From Dehalococcoidia bacterium (GTDB lineage: Bacteria; Chloroflexota; Dehalococcoidia; Lucifugimonadales; UBA3495): 64,000 bases of DNA. The stretch is taken from contig OZ243924.1 of assembly GCA_965213725.1 (NCBI GenBank), positions 303,544-367,543 on the forward strand. The letters run 5' to 3'. Positions within the stretch are counted from its first letter, which is position 1. Every line of letters begins with the position of its first letter. A program made the translations under genes and the position numbers. The notes under the pieces were generated by a model. That model was not told where the DNA came from. It saw nothing but the letters and a program-made list of their open reading frames with translations, and did no database searches. Shown in pieces: positions 12,761-51,487 of the stretch.

Positions 12761-15631
12761 TCAGGACAACGCCGCCTGCACCAAGCCGGGAACGGCGGCT
12801 AGGGCGTCGTTCAGCTTGCCGGGCTGGCGGCCGCCGGCTTGGGCCATCTCCGGCCGCCCGCCGCCGCCGCCGCCCATCAGCTTGGCGGCATCTCGGGCGA
12901 TGTTCCCGGCGTTCAGGCCCCGCTCCACCAGGTCCGGCGTCACCATCGTGACCAGTATGGGGCTGCCCTCGGACAGGGCGCCCAAAGTTACTACGCAACT
13001 GGACAGCTTATCCCGGAGAAAGTCGCTCATCTCGCGCATAGCGTCGGCGTTGTTCGCCGAGGTGCGCCCGGATACTACCCGCACGCCGTTCACGTCGGCC
13101 ACCTGCTGCAACAGCGACTCGGCTTCGGCCCGCAGCAGGGCGCGCTCCACTCCCGACAGCCGACGGCGCAAGTCGCCGGTTTCCTGCATATAGCTGTCGA
13201 GGCGGGACTCCAGGCCGGACACCGGGGTTTGCAGGCGTTGCGCCAAGGCATCCAGCAAGGCCGACTGCTCCACGAACAGGGCTTCGGCGGCGCGTCCGGT
13301 AAGGGCTTCGATGCGCCGCATTCCGCCGCCGATGCCCGATTCGCCCAGCACCAGCAGGGTTCCCACCTGCCCGGTGGCAGCGACGTGAGTGCCGCCGCAA
13401 ACCTCCATGCTGAACGGGCCATCCGCCGGGTCACCGGCCATAGTGACCACCCGCACCACGTCGCCGTAGCGGTCGCCGAAGAAGGCCAGCGCCCCCTGCC
13501 GCACGGCGTCGGCGTAGCTGGTCTCTTGGGCCGACACCAGCAGGTTGGCCCGCACCTTTTCGTTGGCGAGGGACTGCACCGCCAGCAGTTCGTCGCTGCT
13601 GAGCCGTCCGACGTGGCTGAAGTCGAAGCGCAGCCGCTCCGGGGCCACCAGCGAACCGGCTTGGCGCACGTGCGGCCCCAGGGTCGCCCGCAGCGCGGCG
13701 TGCAGGATGTGGGTGCCGCTGTGGTTGCGCGACGAATCCAGCCGCCGCGCCGCATCCACGGCGCAGGCCACCGGGTCGCCCACGGCAATGCGGCCTTCTT
13801 CCACCACGCCCTTCTGCACGATGATCCCGGCCACCGGCGATTGGGTGTCCTCCACCCGGAACGTTCCGTTAGGGCCGCGGATGCGGCCGCGGTCGCCCAA
13901 CTGCCCGCCGCCCTCGGCATAGAAGGGCGTGCGGCTGATGACCGCCTCGGCCTGCTGTCCCTGAACCGCGTGGCCTGCCGGGGCGCCGTCCACCAGCAGG
14001 GCGGCCACCACCGATTCCTGCTCGGTATGGATATGGCCGGTGAACTCGGTGTGGCCCGCGCCCAAGTTTTCATAGGCGGTCAGCATCTCCATGCTGCCCT
14101 CGAACCGCTGACCGGCGCGCGACTGCTCCCGCTGAGCATTCATGGCTCTCTCGAAATCGTCCCAATTCAGACCATTGAGTCCATGCTCCTTGGCAATTTC
14201 CTCAGTAAGCTCGGGAGGGACGCCATAAGTATCCCAAAGCAAGAAAGCATCATCACCCCATATCTGATTAGCCAGTTCAGTCGCTTCTTCTGCTGTCGCA
14301 GCAGCATTCATTACCGATATGCGCCGCGTCCACGATTCAACAAATGCAGGAATGGAAGGCGCCAAACTTGGCACTTCATCAGAAAGGGGAGCATCCGATT
14401 TTTGCCGGGCATTCTCCACAAGCTGTTTTTGTATGGGGATGATATGCTCTTCCAAAAGCGGCAGACCCGTTTCGATGGCTCTACCGAACCGTTCCTCCTC
14501 CAGATTCACCACCCGCAGGATGAAATCGCGGTTCTGCGAAAGCTCTCCGTACACCGCCTGAAACCTGGGTATCACCACCTCCTCCACCTCGCCGAGGAAG
14601 GGGCCGGTCAGTCCTAGGCGGCGGCCGTAGCGGATGGCGCGGCGGATGACGCGGCGCAGCACGTAGCCCCGGCCCTCGTTGCTGGGAACCACGCCGTCGC
14701 CAATGAGGAAGGCGGCGGCGCGGGCGTGTTCCGCCACCACGCGCATGGCGAAGTCGGTATCGGCGTCGGCCCCGTACTCGCGCCCGGTAAGCGCCGACAC
14801 CCTGGCGATGATGGGGGTGAAAAGGTCGGTTTCGTAGATGTTGTTCTTGCCCTGCAATATCACCGCGGCCCGCTCCAGGCCCATGCCGGTATCCACGCTG
14901 GGGGCGGGCAGGGGGGTGCGGTTGCGCTCCGGATCCTGGTAATACTGCATGAATACCAGGTTCCACAACTCCACGAAACGCTCGCAGTCGCAATTGGGGT
15001 GGCAGCCGTCCACTTCGCTTGGCGGCGCGCCGTCGCGCTCCTGCCGCAGTTGGGCCGTGAGAACGTCAACGCCCGCCATCCGCCCGCCGTGGCAGCCCTT
15101 CTCAACGCCGCCGTCGTAGTGGATTTCGGAGCAGGGGCCGGTGGGGCCTTCGGTTCCCGCCGGGCCCCACCAGTTGTCCTTGTCGCCATAGCGGTAGATG
15201 CGCTCGGCGGGAACGCCAACCTGGTCGCGCCAGATGGCGAACGCCTCTTCGTCGTCCAAGTGAATGGTTACGTAAAGCCGGTCAGGGGATAGCCCGAATA
15301 GCTGCGTGACCAGTTCCCAAGCGAACCCGACGGCCCCTTCCTTGAAGTAGTCGCCGATGCTGAAATTGCCCAGCATCTCGAAGAAGGTCAGGTGTTTGTG
15401 GTCGCCCACCTCGTCAATGTCGGTGGTGCGGAAGCTCTTCTGGCTGCTGGTGAGGCGGCGCGAGGGCGGCGTCTGCTCCCCCATGAAGAAGGGCTTGAAA
15501 GGCACCATCCCGGCGCTGGTGAACAGCAGGGTAGGGTCTCCCGCAGGAATCAGCGAGGCTGAGGGCATAGGCTGATGCCCCTTGCTCTCGAAGAATTTAA
15601 TGAAGGAATCCCGAATCTGGTCGCCGTTCAT
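12761..15631 (-). CDS. alaS: alanine--tRNA ligase
   Basis: The track ORF runs to 15748. The conserved N-terminus MNGDQIRDSFIKFFESKGH starts at ATG 15631, giving 956 aa. Class II motifs, the editing-domain HSGTHILH and the C-terminal GGGGGRPEMAQAGG (DHHA1) are present. It is longer than typical AlaS because of an insert (see findings). Confidence 0.95.
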   Translation of the reverse strand: MNGDQIRDSFIKFFESKGHQPMPSASLIPAGDPTLLFTSAGMVPFKPFFMGEQTPPSRRLTSSQKSFRTTDIDEVGDHKHLTFFEMLGNFSIGDYFKEGAVGFAWELVTQLFGLSPDRLYVTIHLDDEEAFAIWRDQVGVPAERIYRYGDKDNWWGPAGTEGPTGPCSEIHYDGGVEKGCHGGRMAGVDVLTAQLRQERDGAPPSEVDGCHPNCDCERFVELWNLVFMQYYQDPERNRTPLPAPSVDTGMGLERAAVILQGKNNIYETDLFTPIIARVSALTGREYGADADTDFAMRVVAEHARAAAFLIGDGVVPSNEGRGYVLRRVIRRAIRYGRRLGLTGPFLGEVEEVVIPRFQAVYGELSQNRDFILRVVNLEEERFGRAIETGLPLLEEHIIPIQKQLVENARQKSDAPLSDEVPSLAPSIPAFVESWTRRISVMNAAATAEEATELANQIWGDDAFLLWDTYGVPPELTEEIAKEHGLNGLNWDDFERAMNAQREQSRAGQRFEGSMEMLTAYENLGAGHTEFTGHIHTEQESVVAALLVDGAPAGHAVQGQQAEAVISRTPFYAEGGGQLGDRGRIRGPNGTFRVEDTQSPVAGIIVQKGVVEEGRIAVGDPVACAVDAARRLDSSRNHSGTHILHAALRATLGPHVRQAGSLVAPERLRFDFSHVGRLSSDELLAVQSLANEKVRANLLVSAQETSYADAVRQGALAFFGDRYGDVVRVVTMAGDPADGPFSMEVCGGTHVAATGQVGTLLVLGESGIGGGMRRIEALTGRAAEALFVEQSALLDALAQRLQTPVSGLESRLDSYMQETGDLRRRLSGVERALLRAEAESLLQQVADVNGVRVVSGRTSANNADAMREMSDFLRDKLSSCVVTLGALSEGSPILVTMVTPDLVERGLNAGNIARDAAKLMGGGGGGRPEMAQAGGRQPGKLNDALAAVPGLVQAALS

Positions 15632-15661
15632 CAGCCTCAACCCTAGCTTAAAATTGCGGCA

Positions 15662-15690
15662 ATTGTATATGGGGGGAAAGAACAGGTCAA
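15662..15690 (-). promoter_or_regulatory. putative sigma70-type promoter of alaS (TTGACC-17 nt-TACAAT)
   Basis: The minus strand reads TTGACC tgttctttccccccata TACAAT. The -10 element ends 30 nt upstream of the alaS ATG. Confidence 0.5.
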
Positions 15691-15871
15691 CGAATTTCGC
15701 TCCGCTCTGACCCTGCGCCACAGGCGGGCTGGCCGGAGGCGCAGGCAACGTCTAAGGGAACGGCCGCCAACAGGATGATACCCGCCGGTATAAGGCTAAA
15801 TCTATGCAAAGGAGTTCTATGTTTCGTAAGTCGCCAGCCATACAATGCCGCCAACCTGAACCGCGGGCGGC

Positions 15872-22253: not shown

Positions 22254-23366
22254 ATGATGGTTTCGCATAGCAATAGGGCGCGGCTCCACGAGGTTGACGA
22301 GACCCCGGATGCCATTGAAGAATGCTACCGGCAGGGCTGGACCGACGGCCTGCCGGTGGTGCCGCCAACGCTGGAGCGGGTGGAGGCGATGCTGAAAGCC
22401 GTCTCGCTCCCGCCGGAACAGGTTTTGGGCCAAGTGCCGGTTCGGCGAAGGGCGTTAACCGCCGAGCGGGCCGCGGCCAACGCCGTTATGGCGGGCTGCC
22501 TTCCCGAGCACTTTCCGGTGGTGCTGGCTACGATGGACGCCATGTTCCGGCATGACCCCAACTGCATTCACGAAGCGTCGGCGGCGACCAATTCGCCGGG
22601 TATCCTGATACTGGTCAACGGGCCTATCCGCCACGAAATCGGCCTCAACTGCGCCGGCAACCTGTTCAGCCCCGGAAATCGCGCCAACGCCACCATCGGG
22701 CGGGCCATCCGGCTCATCCTCATCAACGTGTTCGAGCAGCGCCCCAACATCCTCGACCGGGGCTGTATGGGGTCGCTGACCAAGTTTGGCGTCTGCATCG
22801 GAGAGGACGAGGAACGCAGCCCGTGGGAGCCGTTCCACGTTTCCCGGGGCTTCGACGCCGGCCAGTCCACCGTGACGGTGGCGACGGTGCAGGACCCGGA
22901 GATGCTGGGCAACCGCTACGGCGTCACCGCCGAGAGCCTGATGGACGCTACCGCAGATGCAATGTCCAGCCACGGATTGGGAATTTACCTGAATGACGCC
23001 CCCTGGTTCTGGGTGGTGGGCCACTGGCACGCTGAAATGTTGGGACGCCAAGGCTGGAGCCGTCATCAAATCCAAGAATACGTTTACGAGAAAGCGTGGC
23101 GCAGCCGCGCGCAGATGAAGCGGCTGGGCGCGGTCAACGGCCCCATTGTTGACGGCGATGAGGATACCCGCGTCCCCGCCGCGCCCTCGCCGGAGGGCAT
23201 TCTGGTGCTGAAAGCCGGGGGCGACAGCGGCATATACAGCGAGCTGCTGATGAACTATCATGGCCTGCCCGCTATCACCATTCCCATCCGCGATTCATGG
23301 GAAAACTTCAGGGCGCCCGAATCCGATGAGGAAGGGACGCCCCGCCCTATCCCGGGAGGGGAATAA
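22254..23366 (+). CDS. hypothetical protein, 370 aa, family not recognised
   Basis: The codon bias is clean (G/C at third positions). Notable blocks are ECYRQGWTDGLPVVPPT, AANAVMAGCLPEHFPVV and RANATIGRAIRLILINV. There are no TM segments and no motif I can name. Confidence 0.7.
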   Translation: MMVSHSNRARLHEVDETPDAIEECYRQGWTDGLPVVPPTLERVEAMLKAVSLPPEQVLGQVPVRRRALTAERAAANAVMAGCLPEHFPVVLATMDAMFRHDPNCIHEASAATNSPGILILVNGPIRHEIGLNCAGNLFSPGNRANATIGRAIRLILINVFEQRPNILDRGCMGSLTKFGVCIGEDEERSPWEPFHVSRGFDAGQSTVTVATVQDPEMLGNRYGVTAESLMDATADAMSSHGLGIYLNDAPWFWVVGHWHAEMLGRQGWSRHQIQEYVYEKAWRSRAQMKRLGAVNGPIVDGDEDTRVPAAPSPEGILVLKAGGDSGIYSELLMNYHGLPAITIPIRDSWENFRAPESDEEGTPRPIPGGE

Positions 23367-23390
23367 CCCTACCAGCCAAGGGAGGCGCAA

Positions 23391-23948
23391 GTGACTACGG
23401 CAACGCAGCACAAGATTCAACTGGTGGATCCCACCGGAGCCAACCCAGGGCCCAATCCGCTGACCCTAGCGGAACGGCCCGCCGACATCCGGGGCAAGCG
23501 GCTGGCCTTGCTGGACAACTCCAAGGCCAACTCGGACGTAATCCTCCGCGCCATCAGCGACATACTCAACGATGAGTTCGAGTTCGCCCAAGTCTTTTAT
23601 GTCAAGAAGCACAGCGCCTCGCTGCCGCCCAAGCCGGAGGTGATGGCGGAACTGCACCGCCACGCCGACCTGATTGTCACCGGCATTGGCGATTGAGGGG
23701 GCTGCTCGTCGGGCAGTTTGCACGACGGAATCACCCTGGAGCGGCGGGGCTTCCCCACCGCCACCATCATCACCGACGTATTCGTCACCACGGCCCAAGC
23801 CTATACCAAACTGATGGGAGTGCCCGGCTTCCCCTACATCGTCTGCCCGCATCCCATCACCAACGTCGGGGCCATCGGGCTGGAGCGGCGGGCCAAACTG
23901 CTGGCCCCGCAGGTGGCGAAGCTGCTGCAACAAGGCGCGCCGGATTAA
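23391..23948 (+). CDS. candidate selenoprotein, 185 aa, with TGA 23694-23696 read as Sec in a D-U-G-G-C (UxxC) motif
   Basis: The ORFs 23391..23696 and 23718..23948 are in the same frame, with only the TGA between them. The downstream half keeps strong third-position G/C bias from the first codon after the TGA. It has no SD or ATG/GTG start of its own. The GTG 23391 start has a GGGAGG SD. Local context is LIVTGIGD-U-GGCSSGSLHDGITLERRGFPT. Confidence 0.55.
23706..23728 (+). promoter_or_regulatory. candidate bacterial SECIS-like hairpin
   Basis: The fold is UCGUCG-G-GCA-(GUU)-UGC-A-CGACGG. It has a 5-bp lower stem plus a U-G pair, a G/A mismatch, a 3-bp upper stem and an apical GUU loop. The stem base lies 9 nt after the UGA and the loop 20-22 nt after it. 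An alternative, mutually exclusive fold is GGCUGC-UCGUCGG-GCAGUU at 23700-23718. Confidence 0.3.
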
Positions 23949-23964: not shown

Positions 23965-23994
23965 GGCCCCAAGGCTGACGGCCCCAAGGCTGAC
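23965..23994. repeat. perfect tandem duplication of a 15-mer
   Basis: ggccccaaggctgac occurs at 23965-23979 and again at 23980-23994. It lies in the 77-nt spacer between the candidate selenoprotein gene and the SDR gene. Confidence 0.9.
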
Positions 23995-24025: not shown

Positions 24026-24856
24026 ATGACGTCTGAGCGAGGAACCCGGTTGAGCAACAAGGTCGCCATTGTCACCGGAGCCGGGGCCACCGGCAGCGGC
24101 GAATTCGTGGGCATCGGGCAGGCCATCTCCATCCTGTTCGCCCGGCAGGGGGCCAGTGTTCTGCTGGTGGACCGGGAGGAGCGCAACGCCGAGACCACCC
24201 TGGCGATGATTCGGGAAGAAGGCGGGGAGGCTTCCATTTTCGCCGGCGACGTCACCAGCAACGATGACTGCCGGGCCATGGGCGATGCCGCCAAGTCCCG
24301 TTACGGCAACGTTAACGTGTTGATAAACAACGTCGGCATCAGCGGCCCAGGCTCGGTCACCGACGTGGCCGAAGACTTCTGGGACACGGTGATGGACGTG
24401 AACCTGAAGAGCGTAATGCTCACCAGCAAGCACGCCATCCCGCAGATGATTGAGGCCGGCGGCGGCTCCATCGTCAACCTGTCGTCCATCGTGGGCCTGC
24501 GGGCCGGCAGCGGGCGGCCCAGCCACCCTTACGCCGCCTCCAAGGGCGGCATCATCGGCCTGAGCAACTCCATGGCAGTGCATTACGGGCGGGACAACGT
24601 GCGGGTCAACTGCATTGCCCCCGGCCACGTCCACAGCCCCATGGTGGCCCGCCACACCTCGCCGGAAATGCTGGACTTGCGCCGCCGCGCCGGGCCGCTG
24701 GGCATCGAAGGCACGCCTTGGGACGTGGCCTACGCCGCCCTGTTCCTGGCCTCCGACGAATCGCGCTGGGTCTCAGGCGTAACGCTGCCGGTGGACGCCG
24801 GACTGCTGGCGGCCACGCCGCTGGCGATGTTCCCCCACCTGCGCGACCCGGAATAG
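24026..24856 (+). CDS. SDR-family oxidoreductase
   Basis: The track ORF 23693..24856 is an artefactual 5' extension. The conserved start is MTSERGTRLSNKVAIVTGAG at ATG 24026. TGxxxGxG-type cofactor motif, NNVG and the catalytic YAASKGG (YxxxK) are present. Confidence 0.9.
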   Translation: MTSERGTRLSNKVAIVTGAGATGSGEFVGIGQAISILFARQGASVLLVDREERNAETTLAMIREEGGEASIFAGDVTSNDDCRAMGDAAKSRYGNVNVLINNVGISGPGSVTDVAEDFWDTVMDVNLKSVMLTSKHAIPQMIEAGGGSIVNLSSIVGLRAGSGRPSHPYAASKGGIIGLSNSMAVHYGRDNVRVNCIAPGHVHSPMVARHTSPEMLDLRRRAGPLGIEGTPWDVAYAALFLASDESRWVSGVTLPVDAGLLAATPLAMFPHLRDPE

Positions 24857-32011: not shown

Positions 32012-32145
32012 GCTTTATGCGCCATGGAAATTTCGGGGTGAAATTCCGGCGCGGCGGCCCGCCCCGGTTGAACGCCCCGCGCCGTTGCCGTATCCTAGCG
32101 GTGCTATTCGCGTTTCAATCCCATTCTTTCGTTGCAGGTGCGGGT

Positions 32146-33690
32146 ATGAAGTATGATGTGATTGTTGTGGGGGCCGGGTCGGCCGGATGCGCTCTCGCGG
32201 CGCGGCTGTCGGAAGATCCCGAACGGTCGGTGTTGCTGCTGGAAGCCGGGCCCGACTATCCCGACATTGAAACCTATCCCGAATCCCTCAAGAACGGCTA
32301 CCAGTCCGAGTTGGCTTCATTGCACGGCTCAGAGCACAACTGGTCCTTCGTCGGCAAGCCCACCCCTGACCGCCCCAATGATATGTACGCGCCCAGAGGC
32401 AAGGTGGTGGGCGGCACCAGCGCCATCAACGGCCAAGTGTTCCTGCGCGGGCTGCCGGAGGACTACGATTCGTGGGCCGCTGCGGGAAACGACGAGTGGG
32501 AATACATCAAGCTGCTCCCCACTTTCCGCCGCATGGAAAACGACCTGGACATCCGGGACGACTTCCACGGCAACGACGGCCCCATGCGGGTGCGCCGGCA
32601 CAAGGAAAAGGCGTGGGAGCCGCTGATGCACGCCTTCCACGCGGCCTGCGTGGCCGAGGGATTCGCGGCCGGGCAGGATATGAACAACCCTGATTCCTCC
32701 GGGGTGGCCCCGTTGCCGATGAACAACGTGGACGGCGTCAGGTTGAGCACCGCCTTGTCGTATATCAACCCGATCCGGCACCGGCTCAACCTGACCATCC
32801 GCCCCAACGCTCTGACCACCCGCGTACTGTTCAATGGCAAGAAAGCCGTCGGCGTTGAGGTGGAGAGCGGCGGCGAAACTTTCGTTGTGGAAGGCGAGTT
32901 GATTGTCCTGTCCTCCGGGTCCATCGCCTCTCCGCACATACTCATGCACTCCGGGGTGGGGCCGCGGGCCCACCTCGAGAGCGTGGGCATTCCGGTCGTT
33001 CACGACCTGCCCGGAGTCGGCCAGAACTACCGCGACCATCCGCAGGTGGGAATCGCCTTCAGCGCCCAGGATGGCTTCCCGTTGAACTTCGAGGCGTCGC
33101 GGACTCAGTTGGGCCTGCGTTACACCGCGACCGGCTCCGGCTTGCGCAACGACATGGTGCTTTTCCCAACCACTTTCTCCACCCCGATGGGAGACCTTAC
33201 CGGGCCCGGGGAAGACTTCCGTATGTCGGTCATCCTGAACCTTGCCCAAGGTCATGGGCAGGTTACGCTGACTTCATCCAATCCCCACGATCAGCCCCTG
33301 CTGGAGTACCGCTTCCTGGAAAACGACAGCGACCTCGATCGGCTGCGGGACGGCGTCCGGCTGGTGGTGCGGCTGACCGAAAGCGACGCCTACCGGGCCA
33401 TTATGAAAGAACGGCTGGATCCCACTGACGAGGATCTGGCTTCCGACGAAGCGCTGGACGCCTGGCTCCACAAGATGGTTCGCACCTCTCAGCACCTGGT
33501 CGGAACTTGCAAGATGGGCCCGGCGTCGGACCCCATGGCAGTGGTGAACCAGTATGGCCGGGTTCACGGCGTGGATGGGCTGAGGGTGTGCGATGCCTCC
33601 GTCATGCCCGACACCCCCCGGGCAAACACCAACGTCAGCACCATAATGATTGCCGAAAAAATTTCCGACTTCATCAAGGAGGGCAAGTAG
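32146..33690 (+). CDS. GMC-family FAD-dependent oxidoreductase (choline-dehydrogenase-like), copy 1
   Basis: The conserved start is MKYDVIVVGAGSAGCALAARLSED at ATG 32146. The GMC signatures GGTSAINGQVFLRG and the C-terminal HLVGTCKMG...VHGVDGLRVCDASVMP are present. Confidence 0.9.
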   Translation: MKYDVIVVGAGSAGCALAARLSEDPERSVLLLEAGPDYPDIETYPESLKNGYQSELASLHGSEHNWSFVGKPTPDRPNDMYAPRGKVVGGTSAINGQVFLRGLPEDYDSWAAAGNDEWEYIKLLPTFRRMENDLDIRDDFHGNDGPMRVRRHKEKAWEPLMHAFHAACVAEGFAAGQDMNNPDSSGVAPLPMNNVDGVRLSTALSYINPIRHRLNLTIRPNALTTRVLFNGKKAVGVEVESGGETFVVEGELIVLSSGSIASPHILMHSGVGPRAHLESVGIPVVHDLPGVGQNYRDHPQVGIAFSAQDGFPLNFEASRTQLGLRYTATGSGLRNDMVLFPTTFSTPMGDLTGPGEDFRMSVILNLAQGHGQVTLTSSNPHDQPLLEYRFLENDSDLDRLRDGVRLVVRLTESDAYRAIMKERLDPTDEDLASDEALDAWLHKMVRTSQHLVGTCKMGPASDPMAVVNQYGRVHGVDGLRVCDASVMPDTPRANTNVSTIMIAEKISDFIKEGK

Positions 33691-33691
33691 A

Positions 33692-35233
33692 ATGAAGTAT
33701 GATGCCATCGTAATCGGGGCCGGTTCCGGCGGCTGCGTGGTCGCCTCGCGGCTGGCCGAGGACTCCGGCCGCTCGGTGCTGCTGCTGGAGGCCGGGCCGG
33801 ACTACCCGGACTACCAGTATTACCCCGAAGACCTGAAGTACGGCTACAAGCCCGACGCCTCGGCCCAAGGCGCGCCCCACAACTGGACTTGGTGGGCGCA
33901 GGGTTCCGCCGAGCAGTCAGAGATGATCCCGGCGCCTAGGGGCAAGGTAGTCGGCGGCACCAGCGCCATCAACGGCCAGGTGCTGCTGCGCGGCGTGCCG
34001 GAGGATTATGACGGCTGGGCCGCCGAGGGCAACGACGAATGGAAGTACATTGATTGCCTCCCTTTCCTCCGCAAGCTGGAGACGGACATGGACATCACCG
34101 ACGACTTCCACGGCAACGAAGGCCCCATCCCGGTGCGCCGCTTCAAGAAGGAAGACTGGCTGCCCTTCCAGCAGGCTTTCGTCCAAGCGTCCCTTCAGGC
34201 GGGCTACCCCGAGGACTATGACATGAACGCCCCCGATTCGGGCGGCGTCGGCCCCATTCCAATGAACAACCCCGAAGGCGTGCGCATGAGCACCGCCCTC
34301 ACCTTCCTCAGCGCAGTGCGCCACAAGCTGAACCTGACCGTCCGGGCCAACGTGGTTGTCCGCCGCATCCTGTTCGAGGGCAAAAAGGCCGTCGGCGTTG
34401 AGGTGGAGAGCGGCGGCGAGGTCTATCAGGTCGAAGCCGACCAGATTGTTCTCAGCGCCGGAGCCATGGCCTCGCCGCAAATCCTGATGCTCTCGGGCGT
34501 CGGCCCGGCGGATCACCTGAGCGAGATGGGCATTCCGGTGGTGCACGAACTGCCCGGCGTCGGGCAGAACCTTCGCGACCACCCCATCGTGGCGGTCATC
34601 TGCGAGGTGCGCGATGACCACGAGCAGGATCCCCTCGCCCCGCGAACCCAGACCGGCCTGCGCTACACCGCCTCCGGCTCGCCCGACCGCAACGATATGC
34701 AGATTACGGCGTCGTCCTTCTCCACCCCCATCGGCGGCGCCGATCCCTTTGAGCCGGGCGGAGTGCGCATCCAGTGCATCCTGGAACTGGCCGACGGCGC
34801 GGGCGAGGTGCGGCTCGCGGCCAACGACCCCCAGGTACAGCCGTCGTTGAACTACCGCTACCTGGAAGAGCGGCGCGACGTGGAGCGGCTGCGGGAGGCG
34901 GTGCGAATCAGCATAAAGCTGCTGGAGCACGAATCCTTTTCCTCCATTGTGGACAAGGTGATTCAGCCCTCGGAAGAAGACCTCGCTTCCGACGAAGCAC
35001 TGGACGCTTGGATGCGCCGCACGGTGTTCAACACCACCCACGCCTCCGGCACCTGCAAGATGGGGCCGGCCAGCGACCCCATGGCGGTGGTTGACCAGCG
35101 CCTGAGCATCCACGGGCTGGAGGGCATCAAGGTGGCCGATGCCTCGGTGATGCCCAACGTCATCCGCGCCAACACCAACTGCACCACCATCATGATCGGC
35201 GAGCGCTGCGCCGAATGGATCCGGAACGGCTGA
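33692..35233 (+). CDS. GMC-family FAD-dependent oxidoreductase, copy 2 (tandem paralogue)
   Basis: The start is MKYDAIVIGAGSGGCVVASRLAED at ATG 33692, 1 nt after the stop of copy 1. The motif set matches copy 1 (GGTSAINGQVLLRG, HASGTCKMG, IHGLEGIKVADASVMP). Confidence 0.9.
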   Translation: MKYDAIVIGAGSGGCVVASRLAEDSGRSVLLLEAGPDYPDYQYYPEDLKYGYKPDASAQGAPHNWTWWAQGSAEQSEMIPAPRGKVVGGTSAINGQVLLRGVPEDYDGWAAEGNDEWKYIDCLPFLRKLETDMDITDDFHGNEGPIPVRRFKKEDWLPFQQAFVQASLQAGYPEDYDMNAPDSGGVGPIPMNNPEGVRMSTALTFLSAVRHKLNLTVRANVVVRRILFEGKKAVGVEVESGGEVYQVEADQIVLSAGAMASPQILMLSGVGPADHLSEMGIPVVHELPGVGQNLRDHPIVAVICEVRDDHEQDPLAPRTQTGLRYTASGSPDRNDMQITASSFSTPIGGADPFEPGGVRIQCILELADGAGEVRLAANDPQVQPSLNYRYLEERRDVERLREAVRISIKLLEHESFSSIVDKVIQPSEEDLASDEALDAWMRRTVFNTTHASGTCKMGPASDPMAVVDQRLSIHGLEGIKVADASVMPNVIRANTNCTTIMIGERCAEWIRNG

Positions 35234-35259: not shown

Positions 35260-35287
35260 GGGCCGCAGTGATAGTATCCTGCGGCCC
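35260..35287 (+). terminator. GC-rich hairpin after the GMC pair (no U-tract)
   Basis: gggccgcag-tgatagtatc-ctgcggccc forms a perfect 9-bp stem 27 nt after the stop codon. Confidence 0.45.
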
Positions 35288-35363
35288 CGCGTCATTGTCA
35301 GGCCAAACCCGCAAGGATTGTGGCCCGCGAGTCTTCCCGCAAGTCTTATGGTATGTTGTGAGC

Positions 35364-38300
35364 ATGAACAGCCAAGGGAGACACAAAGGAATCCTGGTTG
35401 TAGACCGGCAGTCCCCGCAATTGAAAGATGCCCTCTGGCGGCTGGTGGAAGAAGCGAAACGGGAAGGCGGTATGCTCGCCCCGGTTACCGTAGTCGGGCC
35501 ATCGCAGTACGCCAACCTGAGCTTGCGGCAGGAACTGGGACGCCGGGGATTCGTCAATGTCCGTTTCATCCTGTTTCCCATGCTGGCGGAATTTCTGGGC
35601 GGGGCCGCAATGGCCGGAGCCGGGCGCAGACCTCTCACCCCGGTTCTCGAAACCGTGGCGGTGCAGACCATATTGAGGCAGGCCGGGGAACCCTTGTCCC
35701 AAGTTCGGGAACACCGCTCCACCCAGTCCGGCGTGCGCGAATCTTTCAGGCAGTTGCGCCAAGTATCCGGCGCAGTGTTGTCGGAACTGGAAAAGACGGG
35801 GGGAGTCCGCCGGGAGGTTGTCTGCCTGTATCGCAAATTCCGTCAACTCACCGGAGACGGCTGGTACGACGGCGAGGACTTGGCGGAGGCCGCAGCGGCC
35901 GATGTAAACGCCGGCGCTGCCCCGGCCCTGCGAGAGTTGGGCCTGATGGCGTTCTACCTGCCCCGCGACCTTTCTCCGGGTCAGGTGCATCTGATCAGCG
36001 CCCTCGCGCGCCGAGGCCCTTGCGCCGTACTGCTCGGCCTTACGGGAGACAGTGAGGCCGACGCCCCGGCGGATCAATTGGCCGGCACGCTCCAGCCCCT
36101 GCTGGGAGAACCCCAAAGGGCGGGCGGCGACAGATCGGAAACGCCGCTGCTTCCCGGCCAAGCCGGTCTTCACGTCGCGCCGGACGCCCACGAGGAAATC
36201 CGGCGGGTGATTCGCTCCATAATGGCGAACGCTGAATCAGGAATTCCGTTACACCGGATGGCAGTGCTATACCGGGCTGACCCTCCGTATAGCTCGCTGG
36301 TGCGCGATGAGCTGGAGCTGGCCGGCATTCCCATGGCCGGGCCGGGCCGGAAACCGCTGGGCGGCACCGCCGCCGGACGGACGCTGGCCGGGATGCTGCG
36401 GCTGTCCTCCGCTCTGGGCACTGAGGACGCCCTGCGGCGCGACGACCTTATGGCCTGGCTCACGGGGAGTCCCATCCGGCGGCCCCGGAACATCAGGCGC
36501 GAGGACTTCAGCCCGGCCCGATGGGACGCCATCAGCAGGAAAGCGGGAGTAGTCCGGGGACTCGGCCAGTGGCGCAAGGAATTGACCGTCTACGCCAGCC
36601 ACAAGGAAAGCGAGGCCGAGGGGGCCTACGAGGAGGTTTCGGAGGCCCGCGTCGAGGGTATGCGCGCGGACGCTCAGGCGGCCGGCGCAGCGCTCCTTTT
36701 CGTCGAAGAGCTGGCGAAAGACCTTCGTCCGCCCCGAAGGGCCGGGTGGAGAGAGTTCTGCCGCTGGGCCGAAGGACTCCTGCGCAAGTACCTGCGCCGC
36801 ACCCTATCCGAGGATGAGTTGACGGCCAGGGACCATATCGAACGGATGCTGCGGGAACTGTCGGCGGCCGACAGCCTCAGCTCGGAGGCCACTCTGACGG
36901 CTTTCCGGCAAGTGGTTGAAGATTATTTTCAGAGGCCGGAGGGACATATAGGCACTACCGGAGAAGGCGTGTTTGTCGCCCCCTCCGCCGCCGCAGCAGG
37001 AATGAGCTTCGATGCTGTGTGGATGGCGGGAATGATGGAAGGCTCCGTGCCGCCGCCGCCAAAGGAGGACCCTCTGCTCCCGGAAGATGACTGGCAAAAG
37101 GCGGGCGGGCCGCCCGTTTTGGACCAGCGGAGATCCCAGGAGCGCTACGACTACCTGTCCGCCTTGGCCGCTGCGCCTTGCCGGGCGCTCTCCTTTCCGG
37201 TTTCCGACCCTCAACTGAGGCGCCGGGCCTTCCCTTCTCCGTGGCTCCTGGAGCAGGCGTCAGCTCTGGAAGGCGAGGCGGTGACCTCAGACAGCCTCAC
37301 CAGGCTGGGTCGTCCGTGGCTCACCGTCGCCGTCTCGCTGGAAGACTCCCTGTCGAGGGTCGAAGTTCCGGCGGATCGCCACGAATATGACTTGCAACGG
37401 CTGCTGCAATGGAAGCGTGAGCCTTCGGAGGGCGTCAGCATCCAGCACCCGCTGGTAAAAGAAGGCCCGTTGGCGCGGGCGGCGCAAATGGGCCGCGGCC
37501 GGGCCAGCCGCTCCCTTACGGAGTTCGATGGCAACCTGTCATCGGTGGCCGAAGAGGCGCGGTTTGCCCTGAACCTGAGCCGTTACCCTCTATCTTCCAC
37601 CAGTTTGGAAACCTGGGCCGTGTGCCCCTTCCGCTATTTCCTTGGGCGCGTGCTCTATCTGAGCGCCCTGGACGACCCGGAGGAGGAAACCACCATCAGC
37701 CGAATGAACCGGGGCAGCCTGATACATGAGATTTTCGAGAGGTTCTTCAAGGAAGCCGAGCAGGGCGGCAGCCTGCCCGTGGACGGTCGGGCCTGGAGTG
37801 AAGAAAGCACCCGGCGACTCCGGCATATCGCGCATGACGTGTTCCGGGATTACGAAGGGCGGGACTTGACCGGCAAACAACTGCTGTGGCAAGCGGAAAA
37901 GCAGAAAATCCTAGCCCACCTGGATTTATTTCTGCAAAAAGACGCGGAACTTCGAGGGGAGTACGGTTCGGTTCGCACCACCGTAGAGACCAAGTTCGGC
38001 GATGGGGGGGAATGGCAGGAAGCCGTTGACGAAGCCACGCAAACCAGGTTCCGGGGGGCCATTGACCGGGTTGACCTTAACGCAAGCGGCGCTCCGGCGC
38101 TCATCATAGACTACAAGGTCGGCAAGCCGGATTCGTACAAAGCGCTGGAAAACGATCCGATAGACCACGGGAAACGCCTCCAGTTGAGCATCTACTCCCT
38201 AGCGGCAAAGCGGCATTTCCCCAATGCCGGGAGTTTGTCGGCCATCTATTGGTTCTTGAATGCCGAAGAGCAAGATTCCCAAAAGAAGTTCCAGCGCGTT

Positions 38301-38600
38301 CCAGACGAGCCTTTCGACATCAACAACCCTGAAACACTGAAAAGGTTCCGCGAAGGCGTATCCGCGATTACCGAAGGAATTCGCGGCGGCGTGTTTCCCG
38401 CCAACCCCGGCCCGCCGGGGTGGAGCAACAACTGTACCTACTGCGACTTCGACACACTGTGCCAGTCGCGCCGGACACGGCTTTGGGAAGAGAAGAAAAG
38501 GGATGAACTGGTATCGGGCTACCTGTCGCTCACCGGCGAAGCGCCGAAGCCGTCCGGTGAGGCCAGCGCGGAGTCCGGCGAAGAAGGGGAATGGCAGTGA
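35364..38600 (+). CDS. AddB-like helicase-nuclease subunit (PD-(D/E)XK nuclease with Fe-S staple)
   Basis: Start at ATG 35364 (MNSQGRHKG...), giving 1078 aa. The C-terminal nuclease block is GAIDRVDL...LIIDYKVGK. The cysteines WAVCPFRYF plus NNCTYCDFDTLC (C-x2-C-x5-C) are arranged like the AddB iron-sulfur cluster. I saw no canonical Walker A in the N-terminal region. Confidence 0.7.
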   Translation: MNSQGRHKGILVVDRQSPQLKDALWRLVEEAKREGGMLAPVTVVGPSQYANLSLRQELGRRGFVNVRFILFPMLAEFLGGAAMAGAGRRPLTPVLETVAVQTILRQAGEPLSQVREHRSTQSGVRESFRQLRQVSGAVLSELEKTGGVRREVVCLYRKFRQLTGDGWYDGEDLAEAAAADVNAGAAPALRELGLMAFYLPRDLSPGQVHLISALARRGPCAVLLGLTGDSEADAPADQLAGTLQPLLGEPQRAGGDRSETPLLPGQAGLHVAPDAHEEIRRVIRSIMANAESGIPLHRMAVLYRADPPYSSLVRDELELAGIPMAGPGRKPLGGTAAGRTLAGMLRLSSALGTEDALRRDDLMAWLTGSPIRRPRNIRREDFSPARWDAISRKAGVVRGLGQWRKELTVYASHKESEAEGAYEEVSEARVEGMRADAQAAGAALLFVEELAKDLRPPRRAGWREFCRWAEGLLRKYLRRTLSEDELTARDHIERMLRELSAADSLSSEATLTAFRQVVEDYFQRPEGHIGTTGEGVFVAPSAAAAGMSFDAVWMAGMMEGSVPPPPKEDPLLPEDDWQKAGGPPVLDQRRSQERYDYLSALAAAPCRALSFPVSDPQLRRRAFPSPWLLEQASALEGEAVTSDSLTRLGRPWLTVAVSLEDSLSRVEVPADRHEYDLQRLLQWKREPSEGVSIQHPLVKEGPLARAAQMGRGRASRSLTEFDGNLSSVAEEARFALNLSRYPLSSTSLETWAVCPFRYFLGRVLYLSALDDPEEETTISRMNRGSLIHEIFERFFKEAEQGGSLPVDGRAWSEESTRRLRHIAHDVFRDYEGRDLTGKQLLWQAEKQKILAHLDLFLQKDAELRGEYGSVRTTVETKFGDGGEWQEAVDEATQTRFRGAIDRVDLNASGAPALIIDYKVGKPDSYKALENDPIDHGKRLQLSIYSLAAKRHFPNAGSLSAIYWFLNAEEQDSQKKFQRVPDEPFDINNPETLKRFREGVSAITEGIRGGVFPANPGPPGWSNNCTYCDFDTLCQSRRTRLWEEKKRDELVSGYLSLTGEAPKPSGEASAESGEEGEWQ

Positions 38601-41600
38601 CCAGTCAATTCATTCCCGGCGACATTGCCGCCCGCCAGAAAATCAGCGAACGGTTGGACGAAACCCTGTTCGTCGAGGCCAGCGCCGGCACCGGCAAGAC
38701 GACCAGCCTGGTGCAGCGGGTAGTGAACCTCGTGGCGTCGGGGCGGGCGACCATAGGGAGCATTGCCGCCATTACCTTCACGGAAGCCGCCGCCGCCGAG
38801 CTGCGCGACCGCGCCCGCCAAGAGTTGGAAAAGGCCGCCAGCGACCAGTCCCGCAGCGAAGCGGAACGCTCCCGCTGCCGCCAGGCCGCCGATGGTCTGG
38901 GCCAAGCCTACTTCCAGACCCTCCACTCCTTCGCCTCGGCCCTGCTCCACCAGCGCCCGCTGGAAGCCCGGCTGCCGCCCGGATTCGAGACCACCGACGC
39001 CATAGCCGCCGAACTCCGGTTCGATGCCGCTTGGAACGACTGGCTGGGCCGGCAACTGGAGGGGGATACTGCCATTGCCCCGAACCTGACCATGACGTTG
39101 GCCTTGGGAATGACAGTCAAAAATCTCCGTGACGTGGCAAACGCATTCCACTTGAACTACGACGGACTGCAAGACGCGGAGTTCAGCGACACGCTCCCGG
39201 ATTGCGAACCGGCAACCGGGCCGCATCAGCAGGCGGTGGCGGCGCTGATCAACGGGCTGGAAACCCTGCTGGATTTCTGCGAGAAACCGGGGGCCGAAGA
39301 CAGGCTGTACCACTACATAAACGAAAAGTTGGAAGAATGCCTTCACCTTGCGGAAGAAGACTTGGGAGTGCTGGGAGTTTGCCGCCGCATCACCGAGATT
39401 CTGCCCCTCAAGCCCGGCAACATAGGAAGCAGATCAAACTGGAGCATTCCGCCCAAGGAAGTTCGAGACCAATTGCAGCAAATCGAGGCCGCAGCGCGCT
39501 CAGCGGCTCTGCCGCCCATCCTTCGGGAGTTGCAGAAATTCGTTCTGGACTATGCCGTAACCCGGCGCGAGGCCGAGGGCCGGGCCGAGTTTCAGGATCT
39601 GCTGGTCTGGGCCCACGAGCTGCTGCGCGACAACATCGAAGTGCGCGACTATTTTCGTAGCCGTTTCACCCACCTGCTGATTGATGAGTCACAGGACACC
39701 GACCCGATACAGGCCGAGATAGCGATGTTCCTAGCCGAGGATGTGGCTCCCGGCGTCGAACCCGGCGACCGGCCCAAGGATTGGGGCAAGATTATCCCGG
39801 AGAAAGGCAAGCTGTTCGTAGTTGGCGATCCCAAGCAGTCCATCTACCGTTTCCGCCGCGCCGACGTGAACCAGATGTACGAACTGCGAAACCGGATGCG
39901 CGGGGAAACGGTGGAGTTGACCCAAAACTTCCGCTCCCAGGAACCGGTCACCGCCTGGGTGAACTACCTCTTTGAGAAGTGGTTGGGCGAAGGCGACGCG
40001 GACAGCGAGGGCCGCATCCAAGCCGCCTACCCCGAGGGCGGTATGGATGCCCGGTGGAAGGCGAGCACGCCCCACCAATACAAGCCCCGGGTCTGGGCGC
40101 TGGCCGACGAAGCGACCGGCGACAGCATGGACTCCGTCCGCGAAATCGAATCAGCAGACATTGCGCGGCTGATACACCACATCACCCGCAGCCCCTGGCA
40201 GGTGCTGGATCAAGGGGCGGACAACAGCACGGGCGAAACATACCGCCCCGCCACCTACGCCGACATTTGTATCCTGATGCCGCGGCGCACCGGGCTGCGT
40301 CAACTGGAACTGGCCCTGGAGGACGCCAACGTTCCCTATCGTCTGGAAAGCGCGTCGCTGATTTTCGAGACTCAGGAAATTCTCGATTTGATGAACTGCT
40401 TCAAGGCCATTGACAACCCTTCCGATCAGGTGGCGACGGTGGCCGCCCTGCGCTCTCCCGCCTTCGGTTGCAGCGACGTCGAACTGTTCCTCCATCACGA
40501 AAACGGAGGGAGCTTCAACTACCGGGCCCGTCGGAAACAGCCTCGGCCGGGGCCGGTGGCCGATGCTCTGGATGTGCTGGATGACTACCACCGCAGGCGA
40601 GTTGAGGATTCCCCCGGCGCCCTCATAGACCGGTTCATCCGCGAGCGTCTGCTTATGGAGGCGGCGGTATCCCACCCCCGAATGCGGGAGCAGTGGCGGC
40701 GTTACCGCTTCATGGTGGAGCAGGCCCGGCTATTCAGCGAGGCTGTCGAGTCCGGCAGAAACTCCCTGCGGAGCTTCCTCGAATGGTTGCAGAATCAAAT
40801 GGAGCAGGACGCGCGGGTAACGGAAATGCCGGTCCCGGAAGAAGACGAAGAAGCAGTGCGGGTAATGACTGTTCACGGCGCCAAGGGGCTGGAATTTCCG
40901 GTAGTGGTACTGACGGGCATCAATTCCCCTCCCCGGCACACTGTTGGCCCGGCGCTCTTCGACCGGAACAACAGGCGCGTAGAGGTCGGCGTCGGCCCCC
41001 AGCAGAACCGCATCGCCACGCCGGGTTACGCAGAAATGTCGGAGCGGGAGCGGTTGATGCAGCAAGCGGAGCAGGTTCGCCTGATGTACGTGGCAAGCAC
41101 CCGCGCCCGCGACCATCTCGTGCTCAGCCTGCGCCGTACCGCCAAGGGGGGCGGAAGCAGTGCCGCCGCGAAGATTTCGGAATATCTGAAAGGCAGCGCC
41201 GGGCTGTGGGAAGCCGCGCCCGCCGGACAGCCGGAAACGCCGCCCGCGGAAGACCGCCCGGCCATGGCCGCCCCTCTCGACCATTCTCTGGAGGGCCGCC
41301 GACAGTGGGTGGAGCAGCGGAAGAAACTGCTGAAAGAGATGGGCCGCCCGTCATTCGTTGCCGCTACAGCCCTGGATCGCAAAGATGCCGACAGAAATCA
41401 GGATTCGGAATACGACGCCAAGCCGGAACGGGATCCTGCGGAACCATGGCGCAGAGGACGCGCCGGCACCTTGATCGGCCGCGCCCTCCACGGCGTGCTG
41501 CAATCGGCAGACCTGGAAACGGGGAGCGATATTGATGTCTGGGCAAAGGCTCAGGCCATTGTTGAGGAGATTCCCGACAGCGAGAAGGATATAGCGCAAT

Positions 41601-41986
41601 TGGCGCGCCGGGCGATAGGAAGTCCTGCGGTGCGCCGGGCCGTGGGCAGCGGCCGCTACTGGCGGGAGGTTCCGGTCGCCATGCCCGCAGGCGGAGGCTC
41701 CATACAGGGCTTCATAGACCTGCTGTTTGAGGAAGACGGGGAACTGACGGTAGTGGACTACAAGACTGACGACGTGCGCGAAGGAGCCGAGACCGCCTTG
41801 GAGCGCTACCGGATGCAGGGCGCGGCCTATGCCCTAGCCTTGGAACGAGCCACCGGCAAGACGGTCAAGGAAGTGATCTTCCTCTTCCCTCGGCCCGAAC
41901 CCGTCATAGAAGCGACGCTCACCAACTTGGCCTCGCTCAGAGACGAAGCTGAAGCCTTAGCACTGGAGCGGCTGGGCCGCGGGTAA
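38591..41986 (+). CDS. AddA/RecB-like UvrD-family helicase with C-terminal PD-(D/E)XK nuclease
   Basis: 1131 aa. It overlaps the upstream stop by 10 nt. Walker A is ASAGTGKTTSL, and the UvrD motifs (LLIDESQDTDPIQ, VGDPKQSIYRFRRAD, VMTVHGAKGLEFPVVVL, LMYVASTRARDHLV) are present. The nuclease motif is GFIDLLFEE...LTVVDYKTD. Confidence 0.85.
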   Translation: MAVTSQFIPGDIAARQKISERLDETLFVEASAGTGKTTSLVQRVVNLVASGRATIGSIAAITFTEAAAAELRDRARQELEKAASDQSRSEAERSRCRQAADGLGQAYFQTLHSFASALLHQRPLEARLPPGFETTDAIAAELRFDAAWNDWLGRQLEGDTAIAPNLTMTLALGMTVKNLRDVANAFHLNYDGLQDAEFSDTLPDCEPATGPHQQAVAALINGLETLLDFCEKPGAEDRLYHYINEKLEECLHLAEEDLGVLGVCRRITEILPLKPGNIGSRSNWSIPPKEVRDQLQQIEAAARSAALPPILRELQKFVLDYAVTRREAEGRAEFQDLLVWAHELLRDNIEVRDYFRSRFTHLLIDESQDTDPIQAEIAMFLAEDVAPGVEPGDRPKDWGKIIPEKGKLFVVGDPKQSIYRFRRADVNQMYELRNRMRGETVELTQNFRSQEPVTAWVNYLFEKWLGEGDADSEGRIQAAYPEGGMDARWKASTPHQYKPRVWALADEATGDSMDSVREIESADIARLIHHITRSPWQVLDQGADNSTGETYRPATYADICILMPRRTGLRQLELALEDANVPYRLESASLIFETQEILDLMNCFKAIDNPSDQVATVAALRSPAFGCSDVELFLHHENGGSFNYRARRKQPRPGPVADALDVLDDYHRRRVEDSPGALIDRFIRERLLMEAAVSHPRMREQWRRYRFMVEQARLFSEAVESGRNSLRSFLEWLQNQMEQDARVTEMPVPEEDEEAVRVMTVHGAKGLEFPVVVLTGINSPPRHTVGPALFDRNNRRVEVGVGPQQNRIATPGYAEMSERERLMQQAEQVRLMYVASTRARDHLVLSLRRTAKGGGSSAAAKISEYLKGSAGLWEAAPAGQPETPPAEDRPAMAAPLDHSLEGRRQWVEQRKKLLKEMGRPSFVAATALDRKDADRNQDSEYDAKPERDPAEPWRRGRAGTLIGRALHGVLQSADLETGSDIDVWAKAQAIVEEIPDSEKDIAQLARRAIGSPAVRRAVGSGRYWREVPVAMPAGGGSIQGFIDLLFEEDGELTVVDYKTDDVREGAETALERYRMQGAAYALALERATGKTVKEVIFLFPRPEPVIEATLTNLASLRDEAEALALERLGRG

Positions 41987-48051: not shown

Positions 48052-51000
48052 ATGATACAGCTATTCCGGCTTTCCTTGTGGGTGATGCGGCGGCGGTTGC
48101 GCGGCTCTTGGGGGCTGTCATCCGTGACCGCCCTGGGCATCCTGACCGCCGTGGTGCTGCTGAGCGCCGCCGCCCTCTACTCGATAGTTCTGGCGGAGGC
48201 CGGGGTGCGTCACGCCATGTTCAGCGCGCCGTCAGGTTCACTGCACGTACAGGTCTTGACCCACAACCGTCCCCTGGGCCCGGAAGATTACGGCGAACTC
48301 CGCGACATTGCCGAGAAGACGGCGCAGCGGAGAATCGGCTTTATGACGGTGGGCCAAGAGCGTTTCGGCCGCACCCAGGTTGGGATGGCCGTCTCCACCA
48401 ACCCCGAACCCCGCATCCCCCCCTTGGCCGCCCCTTCGGGCAGGCCCTTCTTTATGACCGGATTCACGGAGCATTCCCGGATCCTTGAAGGAAGCTGGCC
48501 CCGCACCGGCGGCACCAGCGCGGGAGGCGGAGCTGCCGGGCCTAGCGGGGTTCAGCTGGAGGCCGTCGTGGGGCGGCGCGTCGCCAGGGATATGGGCTAC
48601 AAGGTAGGCACAAAGCTCTTCATCACGCCCTTCAGAACCTCGCCGGAAGAGCGCATCATCCTCAACATTGTAGGAATCGCCGACCCTATTGACCCCAGGG
48701 GAGAGTACTGGATGGGAGCGCCCAACCAGTTCAGCGTCCAGACCGTCGGGGAGATGCTGGTCGTGCCGGCCTACGTCACCGAGGACGACTTTCTGCAAGT
48801 CATGGGACGCCGTTTTCCCACGGCGGTGGGGGATTTCGGTTTCAACCTTTTTGTTGACCCTGCGGTAATCACTGCCGGGACGGTGGACGCCACTCAGGAA
48901 GCCTTGGCCGGTTTGGAAACCGACCTCAACAAAACCTACCCGCGAACTTTCGTTTTCAGCAGGCTGACCCTGACTCTGGAAGAGTTCGAGAAAGACTTGA
49001 CGCTGGCCCGGGTGCCGGTCTATGTGTTCATTTCCTTGGTCTTTGTCATAGTCCTGTATTTTCTGGCGTTGATTACCGGAATACTGGGCCGCACCCAAGC
49101 CGACGAACTTGGCCTGATGCGCAGCCGGGGCGCCAGCGTCATCCAGGTATGCGGAGCATTGCTCTTGGTCGAGGGCTTTATTGCGCTGGCGGCGGTAGCC
49201 ATTGGCCCGCTGCTGGCATGGCTGATTGTCCGGTTCCTTCTTCTGCCCACCTTCGGCGAACTGGATGGCGGGCCCATCCAAGTAGTTCTGTCTGGCGACA
49301 TATACTGGATTGGGGCAATCGGCGCAGTCCTGTCTGTATTCGTATTGACCATCTCGGTAGCCGGGCGGGCGCGGACAGGGATGGCCGATGCGCAAGCCGG
49401 CCGCTCTCGTCCCCCCGCGGTCTCTTTCTTTCATCGCTACTACCTGGACCTGCTGGCCGTCTTGGTCGCCGGACTGGTCTGGTGGCAGTTCCAGCAGCGG
49501 GACGGCTTTGCGTCCCGCGCCTTGGCGTCGCGCGGCCTTGAAGTGGATCCGGCGCTGATTCTCGCCCCGGTGCTGGCGCTGCTGACGGCGGCGCTGCTCC
49601 TGATGCGGGTTCTGCCCTTGCTGGTTCGCTCGCTGGTATGGCTGTTCCCCCCTCTCGGCTCCAATGCCGTGGCCGGGCCGGGGTGGTCTTCCGTCACGCT
49701 GGCCCGCTTGGCCCGCGACCCGGTGTTGCCTTCCTCGCTGGCGGTACTGTTGATGTTGGCCGCGGCCCTGGGCGTGTTCGGCGCCACCTTTCAATCCAGT
49801 CTGTCGAGAAGTCAAAGCGACCAGACCCTCTACCGGATTGGCGGCGACGCCGTGGTTTCCGGCGCAGGGGTCACCCCGGCCCTCGCCGAACGCTTGACAT
49901 CCGTGCCGGGAGTGCAAGCGGCAACGCCCGTTCTGCGGGATTCGGTCAGTTTAGTCCAAGGGCACACAACCATACCCGCTTTGCTGATTGCCGCCGATCC
50001 TCAAGCAATGGCCCAGTCGGCCTGGTTTAGAGAGGACTTCGCCAGCGTCACGCTACCGGAGTTGGCTTCATACATCCGCCCGTCCCACGACGGTCACGGC
50101 CCGCGCTCCGGCACAAATAACGACGCGGTTGGCGTCCCCCTTCCGTCCGGCGCAGACGGAATTGGCGTATGGCTGGAAACAGGAGACCTGACTGAGCGGG
50201 AACTGCAATCCGACATCAACGTATGGGCGCGGCTGGCCGATGCCGATGGGCGATACCGAAACGTGTCTCTCGGCGGGTTCGGCGGCCCGGCGGACGACAC
50301 CGGTGCAGGATGGCGGTTTATGGAGGGCGAACTGCCCCGGCGGGCAGCGGCGGGCGATAGTCAGTTGTTTCTGACAGCGGTTTTTTTCAGCACCAGTTCC
50401 TTCGTAAGCGTGGATGCGGCCCGCATCAGCATAGACGGCTTCACCGCCTTCGGCCCGTCGCTCCCGCAGGAAGGGGTCGTGCTGGAAGAGTTCGATACCC
50501 TCGGCCATTGGAACCCCCTGGTCACCACCGGGATCATCCCGGACAACCTGGCAGCCGGCGCCCCTCGTCCCCGCCAGGACCAGGCCAACCCATCCCCGGA
50601 GCCTGCCGAGGGGGCGGCCAGCCTCACTTTTTCTTGGGAAGAGCCTTTCCAGGGAGAGCATCGGGGCATTCACATCCCGCCGGTCTCCCTTCCCCTTCCG
50701 GCCATCGGCGGCGCCGGACTGCGCCAAGGGCAAATCCTGCGCATAGGACACGGGCGGGCTTCCATCCCGGTAGAGGTGGCAGGAGTGAGCGATTTGTTCC
50801 CCACGGTGACCAGCTTCCGCCGCCCATTTCTGCTTATGGACATCAACGCCTACCTTGCCTACTTGCGTTTTCTCCCTCCGGGCAGCGCCCAGACTTCTCC
50901 ACAGGAAATTTGGCTCTCCCTGGACCCGGCATACGACCGCAAGAGCGTGACCGCCGAGGTTGCGGAGCAACTGCCCCCTCTCGTTTCTGTAACCGACCGG

Positions 51001-51483: not shown

Positions 51484-51487
51484 GGAA

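Follow-up and report, generated by a model that had tools for sequence, protein, structure and literature searches.

The window analyzed here, a 64-kb stretch (64,000 nucleotides) of a Dehalococcoidia chromosome, carries on its + strand a gene of 185 codons at 23391..23948. The gene starts with GTG, ends with TAA at 23946-23948 and contains one UGA that must be read through. A Shine-Dalgarno-like GGGAGG can be read directly from the sequence at 23380..23385, 5 nt 5' of the GTG. In the frame set by the GTG at 23391, the TGA at 23694-23696 is the sole stop before the TAA, so that the ORF at 23391..23696 and the in-frame ORF that follows it are separated by no further stop, as the first-pass annotation had described. 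Its reading of a 185-aa read-through protein with a GIGD-U-GGC-SS (U-x-x-C) motif is likewise correct: the conceptual product around the TGA is ...LIVTGIGD-U-GGC-SSGSLHDG..., and the peptide that crosses the UGA is GIGD-U-GGCSSGSLHDGITLER. The UGA occupies residue 101. It is directly preceded by an Asp codon (23691..23693, +) and followed by the TGC of Cys104 (23703..23705, +), the proposed resolving cysteine of the U-x-x-C motif.

The G/C bias at third codon positions continues right after the TGA, in agreement with the earlier description: GC3 is 0.82 in the 40 codons 5' of the TGA and 0.85 in the 40 codons 3' of it. The downstream half had also been said to possess neither a Shine-Dalgarno sequence nor an ATG or GTG start. 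The first start-type codon past the TGA, TTG 23718, indeed has no Shine-Dalgarno sequence, but ATG and GTG are absent only from the first 39 codons, and in-frame starts occur later, at ATG 23814 and GTG 23820. In the public protein collection the two halves are recorded as separate proteins of the same 3.62-Mb contig, P0002 (101 aa) and P0391 (76 aa), which is the split that had been expected of automatic annotation. A scan of other TGA-joined ORF pairs in the window gave no further convincing selenoprotein candidate, and nothing informative came from promoter or terminator scans of the cassette's surroundings.

Family models were searched with the 185-aa product in which U was replaced by C. 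The product scored 130.9 bits against NCBIfam NF041046, "UGSC family (seleno)protein" (curated cutoff of 125), and 179.8 bits against Pfam PF24696, "UGSC" (cutoff of 25). With both cutoffs passed, a relationship that had been tentatively suggested at first pass is now documented. The Pfam match extends over residues 11-180 of the product and 2-171 of the 172 profile positions; therefore, one domain model spans the TGA. The [U/C]-G-x-C motif after a G-[IV]-G-D strand is present as GIGD-U-GGC.

Matches among 5.8 billion searched proteins were almost all 101-aa fragments ending in ...G[IV]GD, and more than 100 database clusters terminate at the TGA column. We retrieved 80 genomic loci with 54-92% identity from Dehalococcoidia/SAR202, other Chloroflexota, Ca. 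Entotheonella and Ca. Binatia MAGs; these and the gene studied make up the 81 close genes. All 81 have TGA at this column, after which the relatives continue for 81-96 in-frame codons. Seven divergent metagenomic Sec-type genes, recovered via their post-TGA fragments and 32-48% identical in the C-terminal half, also have TGA at the same column (7/7); gene callers break these genes in two as well, leaving the same 21-nt gap. With the exact C-terminal half as query, an exhaustive HMMER search recovered full-length relatives of ~175-200 aa that carry GD-C-G-[SA]-C at the TGA column, and in metagenomic Cys-type loci the codon there is TGC in 80 of 80 cases. The column thus holds either TGA or a cysteine codon, the pattern by which the first-pass annotation had proposed to judge its case, and it is this conservation, together with the alignment to a Cys codon, that marks the UGA as a probable selenocysteine codon.

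The residues around the column are equally constrained. The motif takes the form GD-U-G[GAS]C in Sec-type relatives (D-U-SSC in locus L086) and GDCG[SAG]C in Cys-type ones, and GD-U-G-x-C-S-S-G-S is invariant among the close Sec-type genes. Cys104 is invariant both in the 81-sequence clade alignment and in the Cys-type alignment A6, where it corresponds to C102 of P0133. The Asp codon before the column shows a context bias: it is GAT in 81/81 close and 4/7 divergent Sec-type genes, whereas it is GAC in 67/68 Cys-type genes. This contrast could be an effect of UGA context, or it could reflect lineage codon bias, the Cys-type set coming from other, GC-rich organisms. Across the downstream half, entropy in the 81-sequence alignment is 0.50, 0.37 and 1.25 at codon positions 1, 2 and 3, respectively; this signature and the invariant motif show that the half is conserved, a point on which the earlier proposal had been made to depend.

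Immediately after the UGA lies a hairpin, UCGUCG-G-GCA-GUU-UGC-A-CGACGG (23706..23728, +), which we assign as a SECIS element from its fold, the freezing of its synonymous sites and covariation. Its stem has 9 positions and one G.A mismatch. The conserved core stem pairs 23710-23715 with 23719-23724 (+) around the apical loop GUU (23716-23718). The hairpin begins 9 nt past the UGA, and the UGA-to-loop spacing is 19 nt. The minimal hairpin (23706-23728) has an MFE of -10.0 kcal/mol (z = -3.7), a stability equalled by 1 of 200 shuffles; the hairpin with an apical GUU loop noticed at first pass is therefore real as a fold. The longer fold of 23694-23760 (67 nt), proposed at the same time as a check, was no better than that of shuffles (z = -0.48), and only the minimal hairpin stands out. 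The bSECISearch criteria, as quoted in PMC13188914, call for a loop of 3-9 nt, an upper stem of 4-16 bp, a G in the first two loop positions, a UGA-to-loop distance of 16-37 nt and an MFE of ≤-7.5 kcal/mol; the hairpin falls within all of the loop, stem, spacing and energy limits quoted there. Rfam returned no match at gathering thresholds, and permissive thresholds gave only chance-level matches, all on the opposite strand.

Synonymous choice is frozen across this hairpin. At codons +4 to +11, the 81 close genes use TCG (81), TCG (81), GGC (81), AGT (81), TTG (75), CAC (78), GAC (79) and GGA (76). Normalized synonymous entropy is 0.061 in the hairpin codons, as opposed to 0.718 ± 0.170 in the rest of the gene, and none of 200,000 random 8-codon subsets was as low. 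Covariation was nil in the close clade (76 sequences) because the hairpin never varies there. The divergent Sec-type genes show compensatory double changes at pairs 18:30, 19:29 and 20:28, and the covariation score, which rests on these 7 divergent sequences, is 0.171; shuffles gave 0.063 ± 0.018, with none of 500 reaching that value, and slid controls gave 0.005-0.073. Pairs C17-G31, C21-G27 and A22-U26 and loop residues G23 and U24 are invariant in 16 aligned Sec-type sequences. A potential lower helix containing the UGA (23693-23700 with 23734-23740) showed one-sided changes only and 8 broken cells, and we do not claim it.

Distant Cys-type genes served as a control. Among 63 distinct genes, 3-6 of the 9 pairs are in register and a G-U loop is never found, whereas among 68 Sec-type genes the G-U loop is universal and 8-9 pairs form in 64. 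MFE alone does not separate Sec-type from Cys-type genes in this GC-rich sequence. The hairpin thus agrees with the bSECIS criteria, carries frozen synonymous sites, covaries and is missing from distant Cys-type genes, as expected of a SECIS element. Like the E. coli fdhF-type SECIS and the bSECIS consensus, it is part of the coding sequence, closely follows the UGA and has a small loop beginning with G-U. Unlike in fdhF, the loop is a 3-nt G-U-N triloop whose closing A-U and C-G pairs are invariant across the family, and the hairpin sequence is unrelated.

We conclude, with a probability of roughly 0.9, that 23391-23948 is one gene for a predicted 185-residue UGSC-family selenoprotein in which TGA 23694 encodes Sec. 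The family HMMs, the TGA/Cys column, the conservation of the downstream half and the SECIS element all favor the selenoprotein that the first-pass annotation had proposed.

The full-length protein might also be made free of selenium, if the UGA were reassigned (to Trp or Gly), read by near-cognate suppression or used to insert Cys. The 64-kb window contains no homologue of SelA, SelB or SelD and no tRNA-Sec, its sole tRNA being tRNA-Gln, and one database translation, P0001, has W at the column; the latter presumably comes from a gene caller that used a UGA=Trp code. By ARAGORN, tRNA-Sec is absent from the window and from 60 related loci. However, TGA ends 7 of the 36 long, high-GC3 ORFs of the window and 25 of the 81 UGSC genes (the genuine terminators of which are TAG in 36, TGA in 25 and TAA in 20); UGA is therefore not reassigned. 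The column aligns with Cys rather than with Trp or Gly in homologues, and simple suppression would have no use for a conserved, covarying hairpin whose G-U loop lies at SECIS spacing. In addition, related Dehalococcoidia MAGs encode a Sec-type SelD less than 10 kb from the UGSC cassette (L050:6762-7829, -, and L044:13950-14933, -). These two SelD proteins are 43-44% identical to E. coli SelD and have TGA at the Cys17 column (SHCAG-U-AAKLS), and GC-rich hairpins with GUG or GGUCA loops lie 3' of the TGA in both genes. The best 120 database relatives of the Sec-type SelD, at most 72% identical, are all 308-328 aa long versus 347 aa for E. coli SelD, a length such as N-terminal truncation at a Sec-TGA would produce. 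Since two related MAGs have a Sec-type SelD, decoding of Sec by this lineage is plausible, and we regard selenium-free read-through as quite unlikely.

Could the nucleotide conservation past the UGA reflect amino acid and codon constraints on CSSGSLHDG instead of an RNA element? The two nearest Cys-type genes (L093:3001-3546 and L094:277-837) retain 8 of 9 pairs, with loops of GCC or CGG and no G-U; therefore, the pairing could partly stem from the peptide motif, or it could be a fossil SECIS. With a sample of two, we read these remnants as resembling a fossil SECIS left after Sec-to-Cys conversion. The lack of covariation within the close clade would also fit a peptide constraint. Against it, the four- and sixfold-degenerate codons TCG, TCG, GGC and AGT are fixed in 81/81 genes while neighboring codons vary freely, and distant Cys-type genes lose both register and loop. 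Moreover, the post-UGA peptides of divergent Sec-type genes differ (SSSVLD, AASLAD, SRSMRD, ACSVQD and SSSMDD), and pairing is kept by compensatory changes. Peptide constraint as the whole cause is accordingly very improbable.

The public records P0002 and P0391, two entries on one contig, would be correct if the locus held two separate small genes, encoding 101 aa and, from TTG 23718, 76 aa. Yet a single Pfam model covers both halves, and Cys-type homologues are contiguous single proteins. No Shine-Dalgarno sequence precedes the TTG, which is itself inside the conserved hairpin, and the 7 codons between TGA and TTG are invariant as protein (G-x-C-S-S-G-S). We give this arrangement hardly any credence. 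A pseudogene created by nonsense mutation, with a decaying downstream half, has as its sole argument the in-frame stop at which gene callers end the protein, and its chance is negligible: the stop is always TGA, never TAA or TAG (81/81 close genes, 7/7 divergent ones), the downstream 83 codons still bear a coding signature along with invariant motifs, the Pfam domain is intact throughout, and none of 80 relatives has a frameshift or extra stop downstream.

Under the selenoprotein reading, and by the established bacterial mechanism, the mRNA hairpin at 23706-23728 would fold and present its G-U-N triloop. SelB with GTP and Sec-tRNA(Sec) would bind the hairpin, and with UGA 23694 in the ribosomal A site, selenocysteine would be inserted instead of termination by release factor 2. 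Judging from the position of the motif, U101 and C104 would form a selenol/thiol redox pair that cycles via a selenenylsulfide.

As a fold model we used the AlphaFold prediction for the Cys-type homologue P0125, standing in for the protein studied. The model (pLDDT 94.7, pTM 0.87) consists of repeated beta-alpha units and places the [U/C]xxC motif between strand 90-96 and helix 99-114. The PDB matches listed by Foldseek for P0125 are weak (TM mostly 0.3-0.5) and are led by TIR and flavodoxin-like domains; the list includes no protein of the thioredoxin fold. In this model, the UGSC domain looks like a flavodoxin-like alpha/beta domain. A Trx-like fold was suggested for UGSC in 2008 (PMC2398784). 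That suggestion is unsupported here because the P0125 model and its Foldseek matches are flavodoxin/TIR-like, and we do not classify the protein as a thioredoxin-fold oxidoreductase: the model is one of repeated beta-alpha units with no Trx-fold match listed. What UGSC does have in common with the thioredoxin fold is a motif at the N terminus of a helix.

A PDB profile search with UGSC returned only weak flavodoxin-like and TIR-like matches and neither GrdB nor PrdB. Membership in the GrdB/PrdB selenoprotein B family (PF07355) was rejected, PF24696 being the only Pfam match at E ≤ 1 and no PDB profile relative having been found. With UxxC/CxxC redox proteins, including GrdB and PrdB, UGSC shares a U-x-x-C at a strand-to-helix junction and a probable co-operation with a larger second subunit, which is an analogy and not membership. 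The motif of PrdB is listed as UxxC in the GOS table (PMC2398784). Four Cys-type UGSC proteins (P0177, P0189, P0207 and P0262) have a C-terminal extension of ~90 aa with a CxxC; that of P0177 scores 26.5 bits against Pfam NifU (cutoff of 27), a hint at Fe-S or thiol chemistry.

Upstream of the UGSC gene, on the same strand and ending 24 nt 5' of it, is a gene for a 370-aa protein of an uncharacterized family (22254..23366, +), which we call the partner. It adjoins UGSC on the same strand in 79 of 80 Sec-type loci. In Cys-type loci the partner is found directly downstream in 69/80, or in 30/32 of those where the flank suffices on both sides; in divergent Sec-type loci it may be on either side of UGSC. 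No third gene is universally linked to the pair. The two genes here are probably on one transcript. Natural UGSC-partner fusions also exist (P0159, P0262, P0164 and P0195), and the partner is homologous to the C-terminal domain of P0159 (E, 3e-51) and P0262 (E, 1e-49). The 'UGSC/Unknown_1' fusion of 2008 (PMC2398784) may contain the same domain.

At least 7,998 database proteins belong to the partner family; those with a name are all "hypothetical," and not one carries a Pfam domain. The partner itself matched neither a Pfam nor an NCBIfam model, and no convincing PDB relative was found by sequence or fold. Its structural model has a pLDDT of 82.5, and the best Foldseek TM is ≤0.29. Matches to de novo TIM barrels were discounted because they covered a single 45-residue beta-alpha unit. 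Invariant residues of the partner include C82, its one invariant Cys (in an AANAVMAGC motif), and a cluster of Arg and Asn residues with R143, N145, R150 and R153.

Motif position, synteny and fusions suggest that UGSC probably works with the 370-aa partner. We propose from the synteny and the fusions that the partner would be a substrate-binding or catalytic subunit and UGSC a redox-active subunit or dedicated reductant. Whether the pair constitutes an undescribed two-subunit seleno-/thiol-dependent enzyme, widespread in marine, sponge-associated and soil bacteria, is in our estimate about an even bet; a catalytic domain with a fold outside the PDB would then come from the partner, and the Sec/Cys redox centre from UGSC.

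Downstream, a 77-nt spacer separates the UGSC stop codon from an SDR-family gene (24026-24856). Within the spacer, at 23965-23994, is a perfect 15-nt tandem duplication in which GGCCCCAAGGCTGAC occurs twice. An SDR gene follows UGSC in 36 of 80 loci, and in P0209 the C-terminal part of UGSC is joined to an SDR domain, either as a genuine fusion or through an artifact of assembly or frame. The wider context is ordinary chromosomal, with alanyl-tRNA synthetase (12764-15748, -), two tandem GMC oxidoreductases (32017-35230, +), an AddAB-like nuclease and UvrD-helicase pair (35268-41983, +) and two tandem proteins of ~1,140 aa with FtsX-like permease domains (48052-54910, +).

The UGSC-containing family was described from Sargasso Sea, Olavius symbiont and GOS metagenomes by Zhang and Gladyshev (PMC2398784, PMC1976440). 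UGSC, with its UxxC motif, was among the most abundant GOS selenoproteins, with 255 Sec versus 21 Cys forms (PMC2398784), and it has been reported from 26 sequenced organisms (PMC5029168). Its function was still listed as uncharacterized in reviews of 2022 and 2026 (PMC9312934, PMC13188914). The family has thus been known since the metagenome surveys of 2005-2008, and the present locus is a new member and not a new kind of system. It shares with the described family the scores above both HMM cutoffs, the [U/C]-G-x-C column, the predominance of Sec forms over rare Cys forms and a SECIS after the UGA. It differs in that its motif is U-G-G-C rather than U-G-S-C, and in its host, a Dehalococcoidia/SAR202-like member of the Chloroflexota, with relatives in Ca. 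Entotheonella and Ca. Binatia. What is added here is the demonstration of the SECIS element, the evidence against a thioredoxin fold and a robust UGSC-partner module.

For annotation there is a direct gain, since public gene calls split or truncate the UGSC gene: a corrected annotation would restore the full-length selenoprotein and point to likely Sec use by this Dehalococcoidia lineage. New members can be sought with a specific pattern, the family-wide SECIS core C-N-N-N-C-A-G-U-N-U-G-N-N-N-G from 13 nt past the UGA. The near-obligate pairing and occasional fusion of UGSC with a large family that has no model offer a concrete target for biochemistry and a lead to UGSC function. If true, the two-subunit enzyme would be the first functional handle on a highly abundant orphan selenoprotein family of ocean metagenomes.
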